The notes under the pieces are model-generated. The model made no database searches. It was not told the origin of the DNA and worked only from the letters and a program-made list of their open reading frames with translations. Made by a program: the position numbers and the translations under genes. 64,000 nucleotides of DNA from Octopus vulgaris (Eukaryota), in NCBI GenBank assembly GCA_951406725.2, contig OX597832.1, positions 69,316,001-69,380,000 of the forward strand, in the 5' to 3' direction. This document shows positions 1 through 64,000 of this stretch, in pieces (position 1 is the first letter of the stretch; each line of letters begins with the position of its first letter).

Positions 1-50
1 ATATATATATGTGTTATTGAAAGGGCAGCTGCTGAACCAGAATCTTTTTT

Positions 51-3000
51 GTGCATGTCACAAAAGATTGTACAGCAGCTAACCTGGCTCCATCAAACTC
101 AAACTCACAGATGGGACTATCCACAATACATAAAATGCCACAGCAAATAGACCCAAGGTGGACACCACTGGCAACAACGCACACATCCACCTCGATGCTC
201 CTATTGAACATCAGAGGACTGCTAACACTCAGTAACAGGACAAAAAACCCTTTCTTGAGAGACCTTGTTGCATGCAATCAAGGCTTATGCATAGCACTTA
301 CGGAAATACACCTGAAACCGGACATAGCAGATGCGGAAATACACATACCACAGTATGTTGTACTACGGACCGACAGAAAAGAAAGGAGTCATGGAGGAGT
401 TGCTATGTACATCCGCGAGGACCTCACATCCCAGGTCCTTTTGTCATACTCAAATTCGGTGTGTGACACACTAATTGTACATATAAGGCAACTCGATATA
501 GTTACATGTGTTACATATTGCCCTCCAGATACTCCAAGTCATGTAGGCAAGTTTGAAGACTGCCTTACAAAACTAGAAGTTCTAGTCACATTAGAACAAC
601 ACATAAGTGTGCTTCTTATTGGAGACTTCAATCTGCCCAATGTCAGATGGCCCGAGAGCCTTTCTCTCCCAGGAATGACACGATGCAAACAAGGACAGGT
701 GAGGTCCCTCCTGAACCTCATCAACACTCTGTACATGGAGCAAATAATACTCCAACCAACCAGGGCAGGTAAGATACTGGATCTCTGCTTCACAAATAAT
801 ATGGATCTCATCCATAATGTGAAAGTGACACCGACACTACTCTCGGATCACAACATGGTAGAGTTGACCATGTATGGGCCAAAGGAAAGCATGGACATGC
901 ATTCTACAAGAAACTCTCAGAATCTTTCCAGCTTGAACTTCCATAAGGTAAACTGGAAACAAATTGAGAAAGAGATCCTCAAACAAATCTGGCCTGAATG
1001 TCTCTATTCACCAGACATCAACATGAAACTTCAACAATTCATGTCTGTAATGCAAGCCATATGCTACAAATGTGTCCCAGTGAGAAAGGCCACTGTACAC
1101 AAGAACAAAATCCCCAGAGAGAGGAAAATTCTTATGAGACGGCGTACAAAAGTTTCAAATCACCTAAACAAACAAATTGAAAGCAGTGAAAAGTCCCGCC
1201 TGAAAATAAAACTGTTGGAAATTGAAAAATGTCTGCAACTCTCCCATGAAAAAGAAAGAGCAGACAAAGAAGCCAGGGCTATAGACAACATAAAATCTAA
1301 CCCCAGAGCTTTCTACAAGTTTGCCAAAGAAACAGCTACGGTGCACTGTAGGATAGGGCCACTCCTTGAAAAAGATGGTACACTCACAGGAAATCCAATG
1401 AGGATAAGTGAAATACTAAATGAGCAATTCAAAAGTATTTTCACTCCACCTCTAGGGCATTTTCTAGTCAGCAATCCAACTGACTTCTTTACCACTGCAG
1501 ATATAGGATCAGAGGCAACGATGATTGATTACATCAATATAAAGGAAGACGATGTAATAAAGGCTATAGATGAAATGAACCCAAACTCAGCTACTGGCCC
1601 TGATGGATTCCCAGCAATCCTTCTAAAAGTATGTAAGAGAGTCCTAGCAAGGCCACTGCAGTTCCTCTTTCAGAGCTTCCTTGCAACTGGCAAACTTCCA
1701 AGAAAACTGAAGGAAGGTAAAATATGCCCTATTCATAAAGGAGGTAGTAGAGCGGAGGCCAAGAACTACAGACCTATTTCTCTGACCTCACACATCAGCA
1801 AGGTCATGGAACGAATAGTCAGAAGGAAACTAATCGCCTTACTTGAAGAAAATAACTTGCTGCTTGACACCAAACATGGTTTCCGACCAGGAAGAAGCTA
1901 CCTAACTCAGCTCCTACAGCACTATGACTGGGTGCTGAAACGACTGCTCAACCACTCAAATGTGGAAGTCATATATCTCGACTTTGCAAAGGCCTTTGAT
2001 AAAGTCAATCATGGAATGATATGTCCCAAACTGCGTGATCTTGGCATAGTTGGAAAATTGGGAGAATGGCTTTATGACTTTCTGAAGGATAGAAGTCAGG
2101 TGGTAGTAGCCAATGGGACCACCTCCATTAACACATAAATAATGAGCGGTGTTCCGCAGGGCAATGTTTTGGGATCACTGCTGTTCATAATGGCCCTCTC
2201 GGACATGCCCTCAGCCACGCAGAGAGCCACGATAACAAGTTATGCAGATGATACAAAAGTTTCACAGGTAATACAGAACCCTGAAGACACTATGCACCTG
2301 CAATGTGAGCTGGACAAAATATACAAGTGGGCTGAAAAGAATAGCATGCAGTTCAATGCTGAAAAGTTTCAAGCTTTATGCTATCAGCATGCAAAACTAA
2401 ATGCAATACCCAATAAATACACTGGACCTGGAGGGATTGCAATCCCAGAGGCACAATCAGTGTGAGACCTGGGTATTTACATGAGTAATGATGCAACCTT
2501 TCATGTGCATGTTGCTAAATTGGCAATGAAATATAGGTGGCTGACCGGATGGATTCTTGGAGCCTTTAGAACGAGAGACCAGGAAACCATGATGGTCCTC
2601 TGGAGGACACTAGTCCTAAACCACTTTGACTATTGCTCTCAGCTATGGTCACCATCCAGTGTCAAATTAATCATAGAACTTGAGGCGATCCAATGAAGCT
2701 ACATGAAGAAGATAGCCTCTGTGCAGCATATAAGCTATTGGGAAAAACTCAAGAGATTAAGGCTCTATTCCTTAGAGCGTAGGCGAGAAAGATATGCCAT
2801 CATATATATCTGGAAGATCCTGGAAGGACTTGTCTCAAACTTTGGCATCGGGAGCTACACAAATACTAGAACTGGGCACCACTGCATAATGCCAAGGACT
2901 CCAAATTTGCCATCAAGATGTAAGACAAGATACTGTGATAGCCTGGGCTTCTGAGGCCCACAGCTCTTCAATATCCTCCCGAAGAACCTGAGAGACCTGC

Positions 3001-5136: not shown

Positions 5137-7449
5137 AATATGTAAATTACATACAAATGTATGTACATTCATACATACATACCTATGCAATAGAAAATAT
5201 GTACGACTGCATAGTTGAGCAGTTTGTTTTACAATCACCTTGACCTTAGACCCATATTCGTTGTTACTGAACCTTGTCCAAAGGTCTTCCACTGTAGCCA
5301 CCAGTCACCCAACCAAAACCATGTCTTTGAAATATTTGAAGAAGGATATATTTGTAACAGAATATAGATTCCAGCCGTATAAAATCACCCTCAATAATGT
5401 TTTTGCTTGACCCATTCAACCATGAAAGCAAAGAATGATATGAGGACTTGTGCTTTACCATTTCACCATATCCCAAATCAGCCAATGTGAAAAGAAGCCT
5501 CACTCCACATCAAATCCCATTCAGTTTTGTCTGCGAGCTGCTATAGCCTCACCACTTAGAAGCAAACTTCTGAACAATACGATGAGTTTCTTTTTTTCGT
5601 TTCTATTTTTTGTGCGTGTGAGCAAATTTCAGTCATGCTGTTGATACAGATTTATGAATTCTATGACATGTATTTAGAATTGTTACATTTTTTATCATCT
5701 GTGAAACCAAACCAAATAGCACATATAACCACCTTGTCTTGAGGAGCAGCAGATTAGAATGGAAGATGACTGAGGTTAAGATGTCTTGTCCAAACTATTC
5801 CAAGGATATAAATGATAATTTTGGGAAACAAAACCCCACAGAATTGGACATTACAATATTGTACAGAAATATATATATGCACTCACACACATGCACACAC
5901 ATTGAAATGTATGTATAGTAAGTGTTTGTGTGGAACTTTGTACATAAAAAAAAAACATTTCTTTATTCTTTAACATCAAATTTACACCTTGCCTATCAAT
6001 ATACTTAAAAGTGGTCCAGTTTTCCTGTCTGTTGATGACTTAGGCAAAAGATTAAAGGAGATTACATCATAAGGTAATACTCTTATCTTGTTGCTGATGA
6101 TGTATGATCTGGCACTGCAAAGCACCTTGGGAAAGGGTCTTTGCATATAACTGTGAGCCAACCAAAGCCTCGTGAGTAGATTTAGTAGATGGAAACTGAA
6201 AGAAGCCTTTCATATATGTGTATGTGCTTGCACCTCATCATTTTGACATCATGCGATAGTTGTAAATGTGTGTCAACCTCATACGAGTGGCTTCATTCCT
6301 TTCCAGTCTTTCATGAAAATATGTCCAGTCCAAGGGGATATTAGTATACTTGAAAATAGGTGAGGATTGGTGACAGGGAGTGCATCCAGCTGTCAAAAAT
6401 TCCCTTCAATAAATTCTATCTGACCCATGCAATTGTCAATATTGCAGACCAAATCAAATCTTTTATTTTTAGTTTCAAATTTATAATCTAAAAATCAGCT
6501 GGCATTTAGTGAGTATTTCCATATAAGCATGGTAATAAAATTTCATAAGATTTGTTTGGCATAGAGAGCTTTAGAAAACCAGATGCAGTTTGTCATGTGC
6601 AAGAGTACTGTTTGTGATATCTTGTTGTAGTGAAGGAGCATCAATTAAGCCTATGAAAATAGAGATACTACAATAAACACCAGCAAAACCTCACCACTCT
6701 GTACATGTTCAAAGGGATGAGGGAGTGCACAGTTCCTTGACACATAGTAGCCAAATACCCCTCAAAACACAATGTAATATTTTACAAAAGGCAAAAAATA
6801 AATTGGATGATGAATTATAATTTTCAGACTATTAAGTCCATCTTTATTAGAGATAGAATACATTTATAACATTAACTCTGCTTACATTCATTTTGATCAA
6901 TGTCATCTTTGTTACAGGGAGTTTTATTATTCCTGGATATGTAAAAGCTACAGAGACTACGGAGATGTGAGATGGACCAAGAAAATTTATTTATAAGCAA
7001 TGAGTAGTAATGCATTTATCCACTCATCTGTGCTGTGTACACATCCAAGAAAAAGCTGACAAAAGTAGACCTAAATGGATCAAAACATTAAAGAAATATA
7101 GATATTCAAAGAACTTAAATCTCTAAGGGCAATGCTAATAGTATGGAGAATGGTAATCATTTTATCAATAAGTAATCTCAAGACAATACAAAATTGCATA
7201 ACATAGTCTGGGATATAATATTTCTTCAATGGATGGAATTAATGAAAAAATTGGATTATGTCATTTATGGTGTTGTATTTCTGCTTTGTTTGCAGTGAGA
7301 GAAGCATATGGGCTGTTGTAGTCCATGGTATACTATCGCAGCCATGTATGATACCACAGAAGAAAGCAGGTGTTTTCAGGATTAAACATGCACAAAGAAT
7401 AGAAAAATGTAATTTGTACATTTTCCCAATTTATTTAAAGCTAAATATA

Positions 7450-10760: not shown

Positions 10761-10931
10761 TATATATTTACACTCCAAAAAAGATAAGGAGTAGAATAGA
10801 TAAAATACAGACTGCAAATGTTTCATAACAAGCTGAAGTTTGTTACCTAAGAAGTAATGAACATAAATCAGCTTAGCTAATCTTCAGGTCTTAGTTACTT
10901 GATAGTATCTTTTTCCTGTGACAATCTGTAT

Positions 10932-14229
<3,298 letters not shown>

Positions 14230-53422: not shown

Positions 53423-54297
53423 GTTTTAGTGGAGGATTTGTTTGGCCTTGCAACCTCATTTGAGGCAGAAACAAGATCTCATCGACTGAGGAGGAACAAC
53501 TGGTTCTAAAACAAAACCTGCCATTCATTATGTGATCACATGATCAACCAGACAATTGGATGTTGTTATACATCGCTGGTCACAATGCACTTTGCATCAT
53601 TTTGGCTTACAAATGATGCCACTCAGAAGCTGGCTAGTCAAGCAAGCCAACGTTCTTGCCTCTAGATCAGAAGTCTAGTCCATTGCTGGGTTAGAACCTG
53701 TGTACATCTCAATGGACTGAAGCAACAGGAAATGAAGTGTTTTGCGCAAGAACACAATGTGCCACTTACTGAGAATTGAACCTATAATCTAGTGATCAAG
53801 GGTGCAATACTGTAACCACTCAGCAATGCATCTTCACAAGTCATAATGTGACCCACACGAAATGGACGAGAAAGATCAAGGCACATTACAACAACTCAGA
53901 ACCCATGCTAGGGATTCCATAAAAATCCTTTTGATGCCCATCCCCTAAGACTGACCCTGGATCAATGATACAAAGTTCTTGCTTTAAAGTGATCTAAATT
54001 GAAGCCCATAATCAAAATTTCATGTTAATCTACGTTCCAAACAGCAGCTTATTAACGAGAAAGTCATCTTATTAAGTTTGTCATTGTTTTCACAGGGAAT
54101 TGGAACAAAAGAAAAGTGTTTCAACAGAAATGTGTGTAGAAAAGTGTTAAAAATAATTAAAAATATTTGTTTATAAAATTGGGTCAGCGGTCAAAAGTAA
54201 ACATTAGCTCAAGCCAGAACCATCTCTGATTTCACCTTTACCTAATCCATGGGTTGAGTTAATGTAGATCTCTGTATTACAAACATTTGCCTGTTTA

Positions 54298-54397
54298 NNN
54301 NNNNNNNNNNNNNNNNNNNNNNNNNNNNNNNNNNNNNNNNNNNNNNNNNNNNNNNNNNNNNNNNNNNNNNNNNNNNNNNNNNNNNNNNNNNNNNNNN
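54298..54397. other. Assembly gap (100 N)
   Basis: Run of exactly 100 n. The true distance and adjacency are unknown. Confidence 1.
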
Positions 54398-55244
54398 GGT
54401 GGATGGAGTTAGCTATTTGCTGGATGCTCTCCATAGTATTAGTTTCTATTACTATATCAACAGTACTCTCTTGTGGGGGTGCCTTTACTACTATATTGAT
54501 ATCATCAACATAGCGAGAGTACATGTTTACGAGTATGGATTTCTGCAGTAGGCATTCTTTAAGCCTTCTGTCCCACCATACCATGAAGAGGTTGGCCACA
54601 TCACCAGCGATACTAACACCGATGGCTGCCCCCTCGTCCTGGGCATATATTTTATTATTAAATTTAAATGTGTGGCCTTTTAGGGTAACTCTTATACTAG
54701 CTCCTAGTGCATGTGCGATCATTTTCTTTACCTGATGGACAATTGCGGGGCTCCGTATGGCTCTGGTCCATCCGCGCCATCTTTCTATATGTGTCTTCCT
54801 AGCCATAGAAGTAATTGTAGGCGGTCTACCTCTTAAACATCTACTGGGGCAGAAACTACTAAGATTATGTTTATCTAAGTATTCACTATTATATGTCAGT
54901 CTAAGTAGGAGGCCCAGTTCTTCTGTGTCGACATTACAGAACTCCACCTGGCTCTCGTTGATCATCTCCACGCACTTCTCCACTGCAACATCTACGTCAA
55001 TCGATGGGTATAGGGATACCACATCCATGCTACCTACTATACATCCTGTCAAGTCACAAGTTTTGTTACAGTCACTGATCCTGCTTAGGAGATCTTCTGT
55101 GCTGTCACACACATCAGGTGACATCCTGATTATAGGGCGTATGATCATTGAGAGGAAGTAGGAGATTCTGTAATTGCTAGCGATATTCGCTCCACAGACT
55201 GGTCTTGTTGGTGGTCCTGCTATAGGGTCAGTAAAACTACCCCA
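54398..55244 (-). mobile_element. Penelope-like element (PLE) reverse transcriptase, open frame, cut by the gap
   Basis: GPPTRPVCGA, IVGSMDVVSLYPSI, FKFNNKIYAQDEGAAIGVSIAGDVANLFM and YSRYVDDI are PLE/TERT-type RT motifs 2-5. No stop occurs from 55244 to the gap. Confidence 0.88.
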
Positions 55245-56265: not shown

Positions 56266-56488
56266 ACATTGAATAATATGGGTTCAAAAAACGTTTTTTA
56301 CATAATTGTCACATTGAATATTATGCATTCAAAAAAGTTGTTTACATAATTGTCCCATTGGATATTATGGGTTCAAAAGTTTTACATAATTGTCACATTG
56401 AATATTATGCATTCAAAAAGTTTTTTACATAATTGTCACATTGGATATTATGAATTCAAAAATGTTTTTATACATAATTGTCACATTA
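56266..56488. repeat. About 40-44-bp minisatellite, about 5 copies
   Basis: Unit approximately acattgaatattatgcattcaaaaagttttttacataattgtc. Confidence 0.9.
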
Positions 56489-56980: not shown

Positions 56981-58062
56981 TACTTGTCAAGCTCCAAGCA
57001 TATAGTTTCCATCCGGATATTATACGATGGGTTGGTGCCTTCCTCTCAGATCGCTCCTTCCAAGTCCAAGTTAATGGTTCGCGGTCCGACGTCTCCAGTG
57101 CGAGCAGTGGCGTGCCTCAAGGTTCAGTGCTTGGGCCCTTGTTGTTCTTAGTCTTCATAAATGACTTGCCCGACGACCTCACGCAACACACCCTTCTATT
57201 TGCCGACGATATCAAACTGGTCGCTCCTCGCGGTAATATAGAGGATCTTCGTCGATGCCTCCACGAAATTTGGAAGTGGTCTAACGATTGGGACCTGTGT
57301 CTGAACGTGTCAAAGTGCTGTCATCTGCCTGTCGGCTCTACTCCTGCAACTCAACTTGATTTCGAGCCGGGTCGTCTGCTGCTGGAGAGGACCGATCAGG
57401 TAAAGGACCTGGGTATCTTGGTGGATTCCTCCTTTTCGCCTTCGGCCCAGTGCGTCCATGCTGCCAAAAAGCACGCGGAATTCTGTTCTTGATTCGACGG
57501 TCATTCGGAATGCTCACAGCAGCCATATTTCTACCACTCTATGTCACGCTGGTGAGACCCATATTGGAGTATGGGATTCAAGCCTCTTCTCCTTATCTCC
57601 TCAAAGACATACAGAATCTCGAAAGAGTCCAGAAGCTGGCTACCCGCATGGTTCATGGTCTCAAAAATTTGTCCTACGAAGAAAGGCTGAGGACGCTCGA
57701 CCTTTATTCTCTTGAAAAACGCCGCCGCCGTGGTGATCTCATTCTCGCCCACAACATCATAAGCGGAAAGTGTAACCTCTCGAAAGAGCTGTTCTTCACT
57801 CCTGCTCCAGAGCGTCGGCTGCGGGGTCATTCCGAAAAGCTCTACCTGCGACGATTTCATCTCAATCGAAGGAGAGGAGCTTTCTCCGTCCGGGTTGCGG
57901 ATCCGTGGAACAAGCTGCCAGACGAGATGGTGAAGATGCCGACGACCGCTTTGTTCAAAGCCTCCCTGGACCTCAAGTGGCCTGAACTCTTTACATGAAC
58001 ACCACCCTGTACTTAACTCCATGTCCCCCTACATGGCCTTGCTATTTGCTTTTGAGCCAAAT

Positions 58063-58074
<12 letters not shown>
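56981..58074 (+). mobile_element. Young CR1-type LINE 3' fragment (distinct family), (TAAC)n tail, in (TA)n
   Basis: [56 protein letters not shown]; a single frameshift in the A5 run at 57466-57470; stop at 57998; tail aattaactaactaac. Confidence 0.93.
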
Positions 58075-58107
<33 letters not shown>

Positions 58108-58108
58108 C

Positions 58109-58148
<40 letters not shown>

Positions 58149-58169
58149 TATATACACATATATATATAC

Positions 58170-58202
<33 letters not shown>

Positions 58203-58298
58203 CATAATATATATATACATATATATATATATATACACATATATATATACATATATATATACATATATATATACATATATATATACATATATATATAC

Positions 58299-58361
<63 letters not shown>

Positions 58362-58586
58362 TATATACATACATATATATATATATACATATATATATAT
58401 ACATATATATATATACATATATATATATATACATATATATATACATACATATATATATATACATATATATATACATACATATATATATATACATATATAT
58501 ACATATATATATACATATATATATACATATATATATACATATATATATACATATATATATATACATATATATACATATATATATAC

Positions 58587-58631
<45 letters not shown>

Positions 58632-58714
58632 TATACATATATATATACATATATATATATACATATATATATACATATAAATATATACATATATATATAT
58701 ACATATATATATAC

Positions 58715-58775
<61 letters not shown>

Positions 58776-58876
58776 CATATATATATACATATATATATAC
58801 ATATATATATATATACATATATATATATACATATATACATATATATATATACATATATATATACATATATATATAC

Positions 58877-58907
<31 letters not shown>

Positions 58908-59575
58908 CATATATACATATATATATATACACATATATATATATATATACATATATATATACATATATATATATACATATACATATATATACATATATAC
59001 ATATATATATACATACATATACACACACATCACACATATATACACATATATATATATACATATATACATATACATATATATATATACATATACATATATA
59101 TATATACATATACATATATACATATACATATACATATATATACATATACATATATATATACATATACATATATATATATATACATATATATATACATATA
59201 TATATATACATATATATATGTACATATATATATAAACATATATATATATACATATATATATATACATATATATATATACATATATATATATATACATATA
59301 TATATACATATATATATATACATATACATATATATATACATATATATATATACACATATATATATACATATATATATATACACATATATATATACATATA
59401 TATATACATATAGATATATATGCATATATATACATATATATATATACATATATATACATATATATATACATATATATACATATATATATACATATATATA
59501 CATATATATATATACATATATATACATATATATATATACATATATATATACATATATATACATATATATATATAT
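58075..59575. repeat. About 1.5-kb (TA)n-CA microsatellite array
   Basis: Directly visible (acatatatat-type units). Confidence 0.97.
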
Positions 59576-59880
59576 ATACAATAAAAATGGTAAATAATTT
59601 TCCTGTGGTTTTTCATGTAACCAACAATTATTTACCGGTAAATTTCGGTATGTAAATACGACAAAATAATTGTCAAGACCTTTGTAAGGTTCAGTATATA
59701 GTAAAGAAAAATAAGTTGGCTAGCAGCAAGCTGTTTCGCCTCATACCGAAGGAATTAGAAATGGCAGTCAAAGACCGTTTTTTCCATTTCTATAAGTGGA
59801 GATTCCAAAAACGAAGGCCCTTGCGGCTCACATACACAAAACCGGAGTGGCAAATATACGAATTCAGTCACTTACCATTA

Positions 59881-59952
59881 ATAGCGAACACGGTGTTTCT
59901 GGATCACAAACATATAAAAAAAGGGGAGTTTGAATTCCGTCATCAGCGCTAT
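59881..59952 (-). ncRNA. Type-I hammerhead ribozyme, copy 1
   Basis: Minus strand reads AUAGCG CUGAUGA c GGAauuCAAAC..GUUUGugaUCC a GAAA CAC C GU GUU CGCUAU. Confidence 0.78.
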
Positions 59953-60433
59953 ATTCGATAGCTTTATCAAATGCCACCAGCCCTCACTTCTGACTCCGCG
60001 ACATCAGATAGGGGGGAAGTGCGCAGATGTTCAAACCAAGTAACGACTGGGAACGTAAATTGTCCCTCCAAATTTCTGCCATGCGCGCCTTCTGGGTAAT
60101 CGTAATGGAATGAGGAATCCACATGGTAATACATTAAAAATGGTAAATAATTTTCCTGTGGTTTTTCATGTAACCAACAATTATTTACCGGTAAATTTCG
60201 GTATGTAAATACGACAAAATAATTGTCAAGACCTTTGTAAGGTTCAGTATATAGTAAAGAAAAATAAGTTGGCTAGCAGCAAGCTGTTTCGCCTCATACC
60301 GAAGGAATTAGAAATGGCAGTCAAAGACCGTTTTTTCCATTTCTATAAGTGGAGATTCCAAAAACGAAGGCCCTTGCGGCTCACATACACAAAACCGGAG
60401 TGGCAAATATACGAATTCAGTCACTTACCGTTA

Positions 60434-60504
60434 ATAGCGAACACGGTGTTTCTGGATCACAAACATATAAAAAAGAGGAGTTTGAATTCCGTCATCAGCG
60501 CTAT
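60434..60504 (-). ncRNA. Type-I hammerhead ribozyme, copy 2
   Basis: Same fold, 553 nt upstream of copy 1 on the minus strand; differs only in loop II. Confidence 0.78.
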
Positions 60505-60926
60505 ATTCGATAGCTTTTTGGAATCTCCACTTATAGAAATGGAAAAAACGGTCTTTGACTGCCATTTCTAATTCCTTCGGTATGAGGCGAAACAGCTTGC
60601 TGCTAGCCAACTTATTTTTCTTTACTATATACTAAACCTTACAAAGGTCTTGACAATTATTATGTCGTATTTACATACCGAAATTTACCGGTAAATAATT
60701 GTTGGTTACATGAAAAACCACAGGAAAATTATTTACCATTTTTATTGTATTACCATGTGGCTTCCTCATTCCATTACGATTACCCAGAAGGCGCGCATGG
60801 CAGAAATTTGGAGGGAAAATTTACGTTCCCAGTCGTTACTTGGTTTTAACATCTGCGCACTTCCCCACTATCTGATGTCGCGGGGTCAGAAGTGAGGGCT
60901 GGTGGCATTTGATAAAGCTATCGAAT

Positions 60927-60999
60927 ATAGCGCTGATGACGGAATTCAAACTCCCCTTTTTTTTATATGTTTGTGATCCAGAAACACCGTGTTCGCTAT
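60927..60999 (+). ncRNA. Type-I hammerhead ribozyme, copy 3
   Basis: Stem I ATAGCG 60927-60932 with CGCTAT 60994-60999; CTGATGA 60933-60939; GAAA 60981-60984; GUU triplet 60991-60993, predicted cleavage after 60993. Confidence 0.8.
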
Positions 61000-61043
61000 T
61001 AACGGTAAGTGACTGAATTCGTATATTTGCCACTCCGGTTTTG

Positions 61044-61044
<1 letters not shown>

Positions 61045-61076
<32 letters not shown>

Positions 61077-62024
61077 ACATATATATATATATACATATAC
61101 ATATATATATACATATATATATATACACATATATATATACATATATATATATACACATATATATATACATATATATATATACACATATATATATACATAT
61201 ATATATACATATATATATATACATATATATACATATATATATACATATATATACATATATATATATACATATATATACATATATATATATACATATATAT
61301 ACATATATATATATACATATATATACATATATATATACATATATATACATATATATACATATATATATATACATATATATATATACATATATATATATAC
61401 ATATATATACATATATATATACATATATATACATATATATATATACATATATATACATACATATATATACATATATATATACATATATATATACATATAT
61501 ATACATATATATATACATATATATACATATATATACATATATATATATACATATATATACATATATATATACATATATATATACATATATATATACATAT
61601 ATATATACATATACATATATATACATATATATACATATATATATATACACATATATATTCATATATATATATACACATATATATTCATATATATATATAC
61701 ATATATATATATATACATATACATTCATATATATATATACATATATATATATACATATATATACATATACATATATATACATATATATACATATATATAC
61801 ATATACATATATATATACATATATATACATATACATATATATATACATATATATACACATATATATACATATATATATACATACATATATATATATATAC
61901 ATATATATATACATATATATATACATATATATACATATATATATACATATATATATACATATATATATACATATATATATATATACATATATATATACAT
62001 ATATACATATATATATACATATAC

Positions 62025-62063
<39 letters not shown>

Positions 62064-62281
62064 CATATATATATACATATATATATACATATATATATAC
62101 ATATATATATATACATATATATATATACATATATATATATACATATATATACATATATATATATACATATATATATATACATATATATATACATATATAT
62201 ACATATATATATACATATATATATATACATATATATACATATATATTTATATATACATATATATATATATACATATATATA
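61045..62281. repeat. About 1.2-kb (TA)n-CA microsatellite array
   Basis: Directly visible; same strand polarity as 58075-59575. Confidence 0.97.
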
Positions 62282-64000
62282 CATGTTTTTCGGTCGGACA
62301 GGAAGGAAAGAACTCATGGTGGGGTTGCCCTCTGCGTCCGTGAAGATGTCACACCCATAGTACTGTTGACACACTCAAACTCAGTCTGTGACACACTGAT
62401 AGTACACATGAAACAACCGAAAATAGTAATATGTGTCACATATCGGCCACCAGACACCCCTAGTCATGAAGGAGTGTTTGAAGATAGCCTCAGAAGAATA
62501 GAAGAAATCCTGGACAAACTGGACCAGGGTAACACCATTCTACTGCTGGGAGATTTTAACCTTCCGAAAGTCAAATGGCCAGATGGCCATCTCCTCCCTG
62601 GAATGACATCACTTGAACAGAGACAGACAGAGTCCTTGTTGGCTCTCACACGCAAGTTTTTCATGGAGCAAGCAGTGCTTTGGCCAACAAGAGGTGAGAA
62701 TGTCTTGGACCTCTGTTTCACAAGCAACCCGATGCTCATCCACAACATAATGGTAACACCAACAATTCTCTCAGATCACAACTTAGTAGAGGTAATGATA
62801 TATGGTATGAGAGAGTTAGTTGAGACGCAGCCATTAGAAAATACCACAGGCCTATCCAGTCTAAACTTCCATAAGGCAAACTGGAAGAAAATCAACGAAG
62901 AGATCCGAAAACATGACTGGAGTGACTTCATCACCACACAAGACACCAACACACATTTCCAACATTTCATGACAACAATACAGAACATATGCCATAAGTT
63001 TGTCCCGGAGAAAAAAGCCAGCGGGCATAGGAACGTTATTCCCAGAGACAGGAAAATACTTATGAGGCGAAGAGCTAAGCTCTCGAAGCAACTGAATGCA
63101 CGGCAGAGAAACAATGAGGGACTCCACCTGAAACTTTTTGAAACGGAAACTGCACTCAAACTTTCCTATGAGAAGGAGAGGGCAGAGAGAGAAGCCAGGG
63201 CCATAGAGAATATTAAAACAAACCCTAAAGCCTTCTTTAAATTTGCGAAAGAAACCACCTCGGTACACTGCAAGATTGGCCCACTCTTTGATAAAAAGGG
63301 CTCTCTAACTGAGGACCCCCAAGGGATAAGTGAAATACTAAAGGAACAGTATAAAAGTGTGTTCACATCCCCTCTGGGGCACATGCAAATCACAAACCCA
63401 GAAGTTTTCTTTGATGCCACAACACTCCAAAACCAAACAACAACCATCGACCACATAGACATAACAGAGAGGGATGTAATATCTGCCATAGAAGAAATGA
63501 GAATAAACTCAGCTGCTGGACCAGATGGATTCCCAGCAGTCCTCCTAAAAACATGCAGGCATGCCCTAGCGGGACCACTGAAGAAGCTCTTCAGTGGTTC
63601 CTTGGCTAACGGTAAACTGCCCAGGGCGCTAAAAGAAGGCACCATATGCCCTATCCACAAAGGAGGGAGTAGAGCAGAGGCCAAAAACTACAGGCCAGTC
63701 TCCCTGACGTCACACATAAGTAAGGTCATGGAACGAATCATCAGAAAAAAACTGATCACGTTCCTCGAAGAAACTAACCGTCTCACTGACACACAGCATG
63801 GCTTTCGCCCAGGAAGAAGCTGCCTTACGCAGCTGTTACAACACTACGACTGGGTACTGAAACAACTACTGGATCGCTCACAGGTGGATGTGGTATATCT
63901 CGACTTTGCGAAGGCCTTTGACAAAGTCGACCACGGAGTGATATGTCACAAATTACTCAGACTCGGCATAACAGGAAAAGTAGGTGAGTGGATACATGAC
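62282..64000 (+). mobile_element. Young CR1-group LINE related to the 51-3212 family; ORF2 open to the window edge, 5' end abuts (TA)n
   Basis: Manual translation from 62282 gives 573 codons with no stop ([43 protein letters not shown]), colinear with about 357-2079. It is absent from the ORF track, probably because it runs off the edge. Confidence 0.93.

Follow-up and report, generated by a model that had tools for sequence, protein, structure and literature searches.

Non-LTR retrozymes of metazoans are described, in the accessible portions of two reports (PMC7229834, Cervera and de la Pena 2020; 10.64898/2026.07.22.740005, Li, Clavereau and Pollet 2026), as non-coding tandem units of a few hundred nucleotides with a GC content below 45%, each unit carrying one type I hammerhead, and dispersed through genomes as anything from monomers to multimers, with Penelope-like elements (PLEs) proposed as their mobilisers. 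Retrozyme circles are reported in the accessible part of the first paper; the corresponding part of the second relates that one of nine Xenopus retrozyme dimers was cleaved in vitro and that 24 of 57 Xenopus families matched known elements. The octopus element described here resembles these retrozymes in all the general features just listed, and its unit of 553 nt is longer than the 170-400 nt given in the consulted text of PMC7229834 and falls within the 51-972 nt given in that of 10.64898/2026.07.22.740005.

EN+ PLEs and their non-autonomous forms are the second point of comparison, and the likeness extends to partial tandems, an inverted 5′-truncated copy, a tail at one end and a bias towards microsatellites (PMC8557442 and PMC3846280, in the parts available). 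Frangieh et al. 2024 (PMC11167929) found that a PLE protein, for which a dimer is predicted, cleaves AT-rich DNA on both strands and extends each of them, and that its reverse transcriptase (RT) starts at two internal RNA sites, which correspond to the genomic tail; an internal start at two sites is again a trait that the octopus element appears to share. In the one PLE tested in that study, hammerhead mutants were without effect on insertion in vitro. The minimal hammerheads of PLEs, as presented in the accessible text of PMC4209133 and PMC3088659, have an extra nucleotide between A9 and G10.1, a long helix II, a palindromic helix III predicted to need a dimer, and known U4C variants, all of which recur in the octopus motif.

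The window analysed here, a 64,000-nt stretch of the Octopus vulgaris contig OX597832.1, contains one insertion of this kind within a (TA)n tract (Table 1). The preliminary description had counted about 1.7 direct copies and one inverted copy of a CpG-rich, essentially non-coding 553-bp unit, and measurement bore this out: there are 1.70 units in direct orientation and an inverted arm of 0.96 unit, 20 nt short of a full one; CpG observed/expected is 1.03 in the element vs 0.34 for the whole window; GC is 40%; the longest ATG frame has 66 aa, and the two longest stop-to-stop frames of the unit found no match in Pfam. An ORF with RT plus GIY-YIG was sought in the element and is absent, and the element is thus no autonomous PLE. 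The same description had placed it inside a 4-kb TA microsatellite, which is right as to the TA on both sides and too generous as to length, as the flanking tracts of 1,504 and 1,238 bp make 2.7 kb and 4.2 kb is reached only if the element itself is counted. With orientation defined by the hammerhead, the two arms are joined head-to-head by their 5′ ends, both 3′ ends face outward into TA, and the inverted arm is circularly permuted, running from unit position 233 to 1 and then from 553 to 254. Two rare variants, present in 2/107 and 0/92 other copies, are common to both arms; the left unit has four further private substitutions.

Table 1. Features in the window (positions counted from its first letter)
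Feature	Position	Strand	Remark
LINE ORF (endonuclease and RT)	36..2135	+	
LINE ORF (endonuclease and RT)	10881..13976	+	weak match to PHD finger
346-aa frame, PLE-like RT fragment	54207..55244	-	RVT_1 E 0.001; 30% to 753-aa PLE, E 2e-8
45-bp tandem repeat	56266..56487		5.1 copies, between TA tracts
Broken RT-like 3′ stretch	about 57000..58070	+	before left microsatellite
Left (TA)n/(TATAC)-type microsatellite	58075..59578		insertion target
Complete 553-nt unit	59579..60131	-	3′ end at 59579 is the family 'long' (A) terminus
Predicted terminal hairpin	59591..59640	-	~12 nt upstream of long terminus; predicted fold, also predicted in sister families
Predicted 9-bp long-range helix around 'short' (B) terminus	59646..59751	-	59743-59751 with 59646-59654; predicted fold
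Family 'short' (B) terminus	about 59695-59701	-	
Type I hammerhead motif, copy 1	59881..59952	-	CUGAUGA starts at 59946; predicted cleavage between 59887 and 59886
Truncated second unit	60132..60517	-	387 nt, unit positions 1-387; 5′-truncated; 99% identical
Type I hammerhead motif, copy 2	60434..60504	-	CUGAUGA starts at 60498
Head-to-head arm junction	60515..60517		3-nt overlap
Inverted arm	60515..about 61045	+	533 nt, 98% identical; 3′ end at minor terminus, unit position about 254-257
Type I hammerhead motif, copy 3	60927..60999	+	CUGAUGA starts at 60933
Right microsatellite	61044..62281		
LINE-like endonuclease/RT frame	62287..64000	+	directly after microsatellite, open to window end; assigned by eye

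The unit belongs to a young, dispersed, mobile, non-coding family. A DNA search of the genome returned 896 candidates, 40 of which were scored, with full-length matches at 91-98% identity, and a 32-nt family tag has at least 519 matches, its reversed control none. A first set of 72 insertions was assembled from the best DNA matches and a hammerhead tag, with overlapping loci removed; two of its loci, on C13, are probably duplicates of one event, and one locus adjoins an assembly gap. The 3′ ends in this set cluster at two sites about 120 nt apart, one near unit position 1 (long), the other at about 117-122 (short), and 101 of 115 of them adjoin (TA)n, flanks that would hide any target-site duplication. 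There were 43 inverted and 29 direct insertions, and the inverted ones were divided into 29 with one long and one short end, none with two long, none with two short and 14, the window insertion included, in which one end lay elsewhere; for the 29 long-plus-short insertions the binomial p is 3.7e-9. A held-out set, namely the first 40 unseen loci of a tail-tag list, a selection that favours long ends, gave 19 inverted and 21 direct insertions; ten of the inverted ones were long plus short, seven long plus other and two short plus other, and none had ends alike. Taken together, 62 of 112 insertions are inverted head-to-head, 39 of them long plus short, 0 alike and 23, again with the window insertion, having one end at neither main site, a fraction that counts against the model proposed below. 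The minor TA-like terminus at about 254-257, at which the right arm of the window copy ends, is used by 5 of the 112 (L070, L128, L282 and L301 are the others). A fixed LTR pair was found in none of the 112, and the flanks of the non-TA junctions on C13 and C5 yielded no linked PLE ORF.

Several loci showed peculiarities of their own. At L294 the 'other' end resembles the long end minus the inside of the terminal hairpin, as if the enzyme had skipped the stem, and in L008, L006 and L003 (C13, 266-302 kb) a mirror-image duplicated block carries the same insertion junction twice. L034 has two frames on the minus strand (878-1474 and 5372-6250), one about 40 nt from a retrozyme insertion, which we take from their QACRG motif to be caspase-like.

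The arms are 0.1 to 4.6 units long, either of the two may be the longer, their 5′ breaks are unrelated to each other, and at most junctions they overlap by a few bases. Within one insertion the arms differ by 0.9% on average vs a median of 3.2% to other insertions; the within-insertion difference was the lower one in all 37 testable cases (the arms overlap enough in 37 of the 43 inverted insertions) and lay at or below that to the closest outside copy in 19 of the 37. A two-stage origin might be envisaged for such structures, in which a single arm is inserted and the inverted arm follows, through fold-back or self-priming while the second strand is synthesised or repaired, or else at some later time, with gene conversion homogenising the two. 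For PLE repeats that meet head-to-head at a palindromic junction, self-priming has indeed been put forward (PMC3846280, in the part available), and the short overlaps would suit it. Fold-back, however, cannot produce an arm that starts at a fixed site about 120 nt past, or short of, the start of the first arm, nor does it sit well with the free choice of the longer arm and the unrelated 5′ breaks, and this origin is regarded as improbable.

The hammerhead itself had been described as full and of type I in each copy. The 6-bp stem I, CUGAUGA, the extended stem II, GAAA and the GUU triplet do stand in all three motifs; it is the core that departs from the canonical form, with one additional C following A9, one additional A preceding G12 and a loop 3 of one nucleotide. 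The order is stem I, CUGAUGA, the extra C, a stem II opening with G-C, the extra A, GAAA, a 4-bp stem III, the 1-nt loop and GUU. Because a 1-nt loop cannot fold, stem III would need a dimer, and its segment is predicted to self-pair (-7.4 kcal/mol, a single mismatch in the centre), in a dimer arrangement like that given for metazoan hammerheads in PMC4209133. The proposed check against Rfam failed to recover the motif: no hammerhead appeared at E up to 10, only microsatellite-driven miRNA matches and noise. A relaxed hammerhead descriptor matched 9 of 5000 dinucleotide shuffles of the unit, and taken by itself the motif shows no folding advantage over shuffles (z -0.1 to -0.7). Conservation among genomic copies, named beforehand as a test that could refute the assignment, spoke in its favour, the core being intact in 100 of 118 family copies; 16 of 118 carry U4C (L144 is an example), variation is free at N7 and at the base added after A9, and the extra A before G12 is invariant (118/118). 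This A can equally be written as a mismatch (C-A or A-A) at 10.1-11.1, at the base of stem II, in contrast to the minimal PLE hammerheads, for which the accessible text of PMC4209133 and PMC3088659 has only a U-U mismatch there; other work on PLE hammerhead variants may cover it. A hairpin with GAAA that lies a little way upstream of the short terminus was considered as a second hammerhead and rejected, as it has no CUGANGA partner.

Sister families made it possible to ask how the fold had been treated over longer distances. In a family of 615-646 nt (554 tag matches), most of the unit is matched by collinear aligned segments of about 67-71% identity, the hammerhead sits at the same place, one run of tag matches about 616 bp apart extends over 7.4 kb, and insertions with the 615-nt unit end mostly at the equivalents of the two sites. 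A search with the shared hammerhead pattern gave 661 matches, further families included; sister loci noted in the course of the work are L176, L161, L245, L250, L253 and L266, with families of 615-646 nt, 562 nt and others. Across the families 97.3% of cells in the hammerhead alignment pair, both partners vary in 7 of the 13 pairs, none of 500 shuffles reaches the score, and slid-register controls were 25-45% paired. The alignment comprised 12 of 16 distinct motifs (three near-duplicates and one degenerate row were left out), in most rows the core and the base of stem II were dictated by the search pattern, one row is misaligned, and the 3′ register was picked by best stem I pairing. Since the stems covary across families that align at about 67% identity (BLAST) or not at all, selection on the hammerhead fold is indicated. 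The motif is predicted to be a self-cleaving type I hammerhead.

Transcript evidence was confined to contigs, as no RNA records of the unit are listed on the public record. Contigs of four sequencing runs cover parts of the unit and of the sister families, a kind of record from which strand, ends and circles are not readable. In the run X16, from a library of unstated type, the summed contig depth exceeds 100,000 over part of the unit (window 60540-60590). In four more runs the contigs follow the normal unit across 60515 instead of the junction; those individuals need not carry the insertion. Such contigs, together with the Rfam result, the shuffle-like folding of the motif alone and the private substitutions of the left unit, could be read to mean that the structure is a satellite of local origin, or an assembly error, and resembles a hammerhead by chance. 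Hundreds of dispersed copies, inverted insertions with differing junctions at 62 of 112 loci and the covariation of the hammerhead speak against such a reading, which is very improbable at this locus and largely refuted for the family.

The breakpoints bear on the template. Tandem copies within one arm differ by 0.6%, and 120 5′ breaks are spread over the unit without enrichment at the predicted cleavage site, 3 lying within 5 nt of it vs about 2.4 expected if uniform. This spread implies that the cDNA runs through the cleavage site, and hence that the template was a circle or an uncleaved multimer; both fit the arm and break data, and the arms may also owe some of their likeness to gene conversion. 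If the same PLE enzyme and start sites were used on an uncleaved linear multimer, with the hammerhead acting at a different step or only when helped by a protein, no circle would be needed. That 5′ breaks ignore the cleavage site would then be natural, donor arrays are homogeneous enough for a multimer to yield near-identical units as well, unprocessed RNA was the main substrate of the anole PLE in vitro (PMC11167929), and a non-canonical hammerhead core may be slow. Daughter arrays, on the other hand, could not outgrow their donor, yet there are arms of 4.6 units and the long 616-bp run of the sister family, and the covarying stems point to selection on the fold. A linear template is accordingly held to be unlikely, if far from negligible, and replication through a self-cleaving RNA is the reading we infer.

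The sequence around the two start sites is predicted to be structured. Folded as a circle, the monomer exceeds its shuffles in stability (z -3.0, 40 shuffles), in which state stem I is predicted to form with a probability of only about 0.2. The 9-bp helix around the short site and the hairpin before the long site are predicted in most sister families. In an alignment of nine sequences pairing of the helix is complete (100%), there is one compensatory change, and the G-U variants agree with the strand of the hammerhead. The covariation score of this 3′ cassette, from which the terminal hairpin, not alignable across groups, was left out, is attained by 12 of 500 shuffles. Support for the helix is modest, because most of its pairs are invariant.

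A PLE RT fragment near a C13 retrozyme copy led to a young, intact PLE family of about 4.6 kb per unit (L099:2672-4930, L098, L107; 146 tag matches), which encodes a 753-aa frame with RT, GIY-YIG and a cysteine linker and is called 'Neptune/Nematis-type' here from the C-x5-C-x2-C pattern of that linker only. Of 23 insertions examined, 13 had both ends, 12 of them long plus short and one other plus short, with (TA)n as the target of nearly all. Its common short end gives a tail of 48 nt, and a rarer one lies further upstream. The short ends of this PLE and of the retrozyme agree at 11 of the last 12 nt, a match unique among the 811 positions of the PLE 3′ non-coding region, and a similar ACCAUUU-U-rich run terminates the long end of each; the match is short, U-rich and was spotted after the fact. 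A second young family (L214, L219, L236), with a 781-aa frame, also targets TA and has two ends 38 nt apart and a U3-A8-type motif, and by its behaviour it is an equal candidate source of the enzyme. In the terminal hammerhead-like motif of the 753-aa PLE the core is of U3-A8 type and the GAAA box contains one additional A. The retrozyme hammerhead model does not match this motif, and on PLE loci it gave two weak matches, in L219 and L098. The 346-aa frame in the window probably belongs to another PLE clade.

The preliminary description had spoken of a non-autonomous PLE-derived or retrozyme-like family. The retrozyme-like character and a PLE insertion signature stand; descent from a PLE is not supported, as extended similarity of the unit to PLE terminal repeats was absent from 74 PLE loci, separate retrozyme insertions there aside (150 of 8371 RT and 150 of 6136 GIY-YIG candidates had been scored). 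Because of this absence, and because the hammerhead model misses the PLE terminal motifs, the family is called PLE-mobilised and not PLE-derived; in Xenopus, by contrast, a good part of the retrozyme families matched known elements (10.64898/2026.07.22.740005, accessible portion). Compared with EN+ PLEs as the consulted parts of the literature present them, the octopus element has no ORF, its whole length amounts to one repeat unit, and its tail is about 120 nt vs 30-40, or vs the 48 and 38 nt of the two octopus PLEs.

The octopus element thus has every non-LTR retrozyme feature examined (a type I hammerhead per unit, head-to-tail tandems, low GC, no coding capacity and a dispersed family) and behaves like a non-autonomous PLE, with two 3′ termini, a partial tandem plus an inverted 5′-truncated copy, and a microsatellite or AT-rich target. 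The model that we favour, at a probability of roughly two in three, is that a young non-LTR retrozyme was copied into (TA)n by a borrowed PLE RT/GIY-YIG enzyme, probably from one circular RNA primed at both cut ends of the target. It builds on the observed termini, the likeness of the arms, the 5′ breaks, the covariation and the two-end rule of the PLE; from these, transcription, cleavage, the circle and the enzyme are inferred. A tandem array would first be transcribed, and the hammerheads, paired as dimers through the near-palindromic stem III, would then, with reasonable probability, free a 553-nt monomer that is ligated into a circle. The PLE enzyme would nick both (TA)n strands and start reverse transcription internally at two structure-marked sites, one per strand. 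Each cDNA would cover between 0.1 and 4.6 units as it travels around the template, and short microhomology would serve to join the pair head-to-head; in the window copy the second arm would have begun at the minor TA-like site, and direct insertions would be one-sided events. Within this model, that the enzyme is of PLE origin is quite probable, a single template shared by both arms is slightly favoured, and the 753-aa family as the actual partner is a plausible candidate at a little under even odds. The window insertion is more likely a dead end than a donor, because any read-through transcript of it would fold back along the 530-bp inverted repeat and form a long hairpin.

Much of the background is already in print, namely retrozymes, their proposed link to PLEs, PLE inversions and one-sided tails (PMC7229834, 10.64898/2026.07.22.740005, PMC8557442 and PMC3846280, in the portions available to us). 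Head-to-head arms with two fixed termini and (TA)n targeting are not described for retrozymes in the accessible portions of PMC7229834 or 10.64898/2026.07.22.740005, and the rule of one long and one short end is counted here, whereas the parts consulted of PMC8557442 and PMC3846280 call the PLE tail optional or often one-ended. A literature search found no description of the octopus family or of a counted long/short rule; repeat libraries and supplements may list the family, and supplements perhaps its core variant. What the locus contributes is the held-out test, the test for a shared template, the cassette around the two sites, the match to the PLE end motifs and the variant of stem II.

Two questions are touched by these results, namely which enzyme moves animal retrozymes and how the tails and inversions of PLEs originate. 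Both are directly testable, because a 553-nt template with two mapped starts and an intact candidate enzyme share one genome and an in vitro assay for a PLE exists (PMC11167929). A more ambitious joint reading, which is offered tentatively and may well prove wrong, would have a retrozyme clan without descent from PLE repeats evolve a conserved RNA cassette together with end motifs mimicking those of a co-resident PLE; the PLE enzyme, as a dimer, would hold a single circle at its two start sites and copy it simultaneously from the two strands of the target, and the hammerhead would be active despite a purine-containing mismatch at the normally conserved foot of stem II. If true, it would provide one mechanism for the PLE tail, the head-to-head inversion and the mobility of retrozymes.
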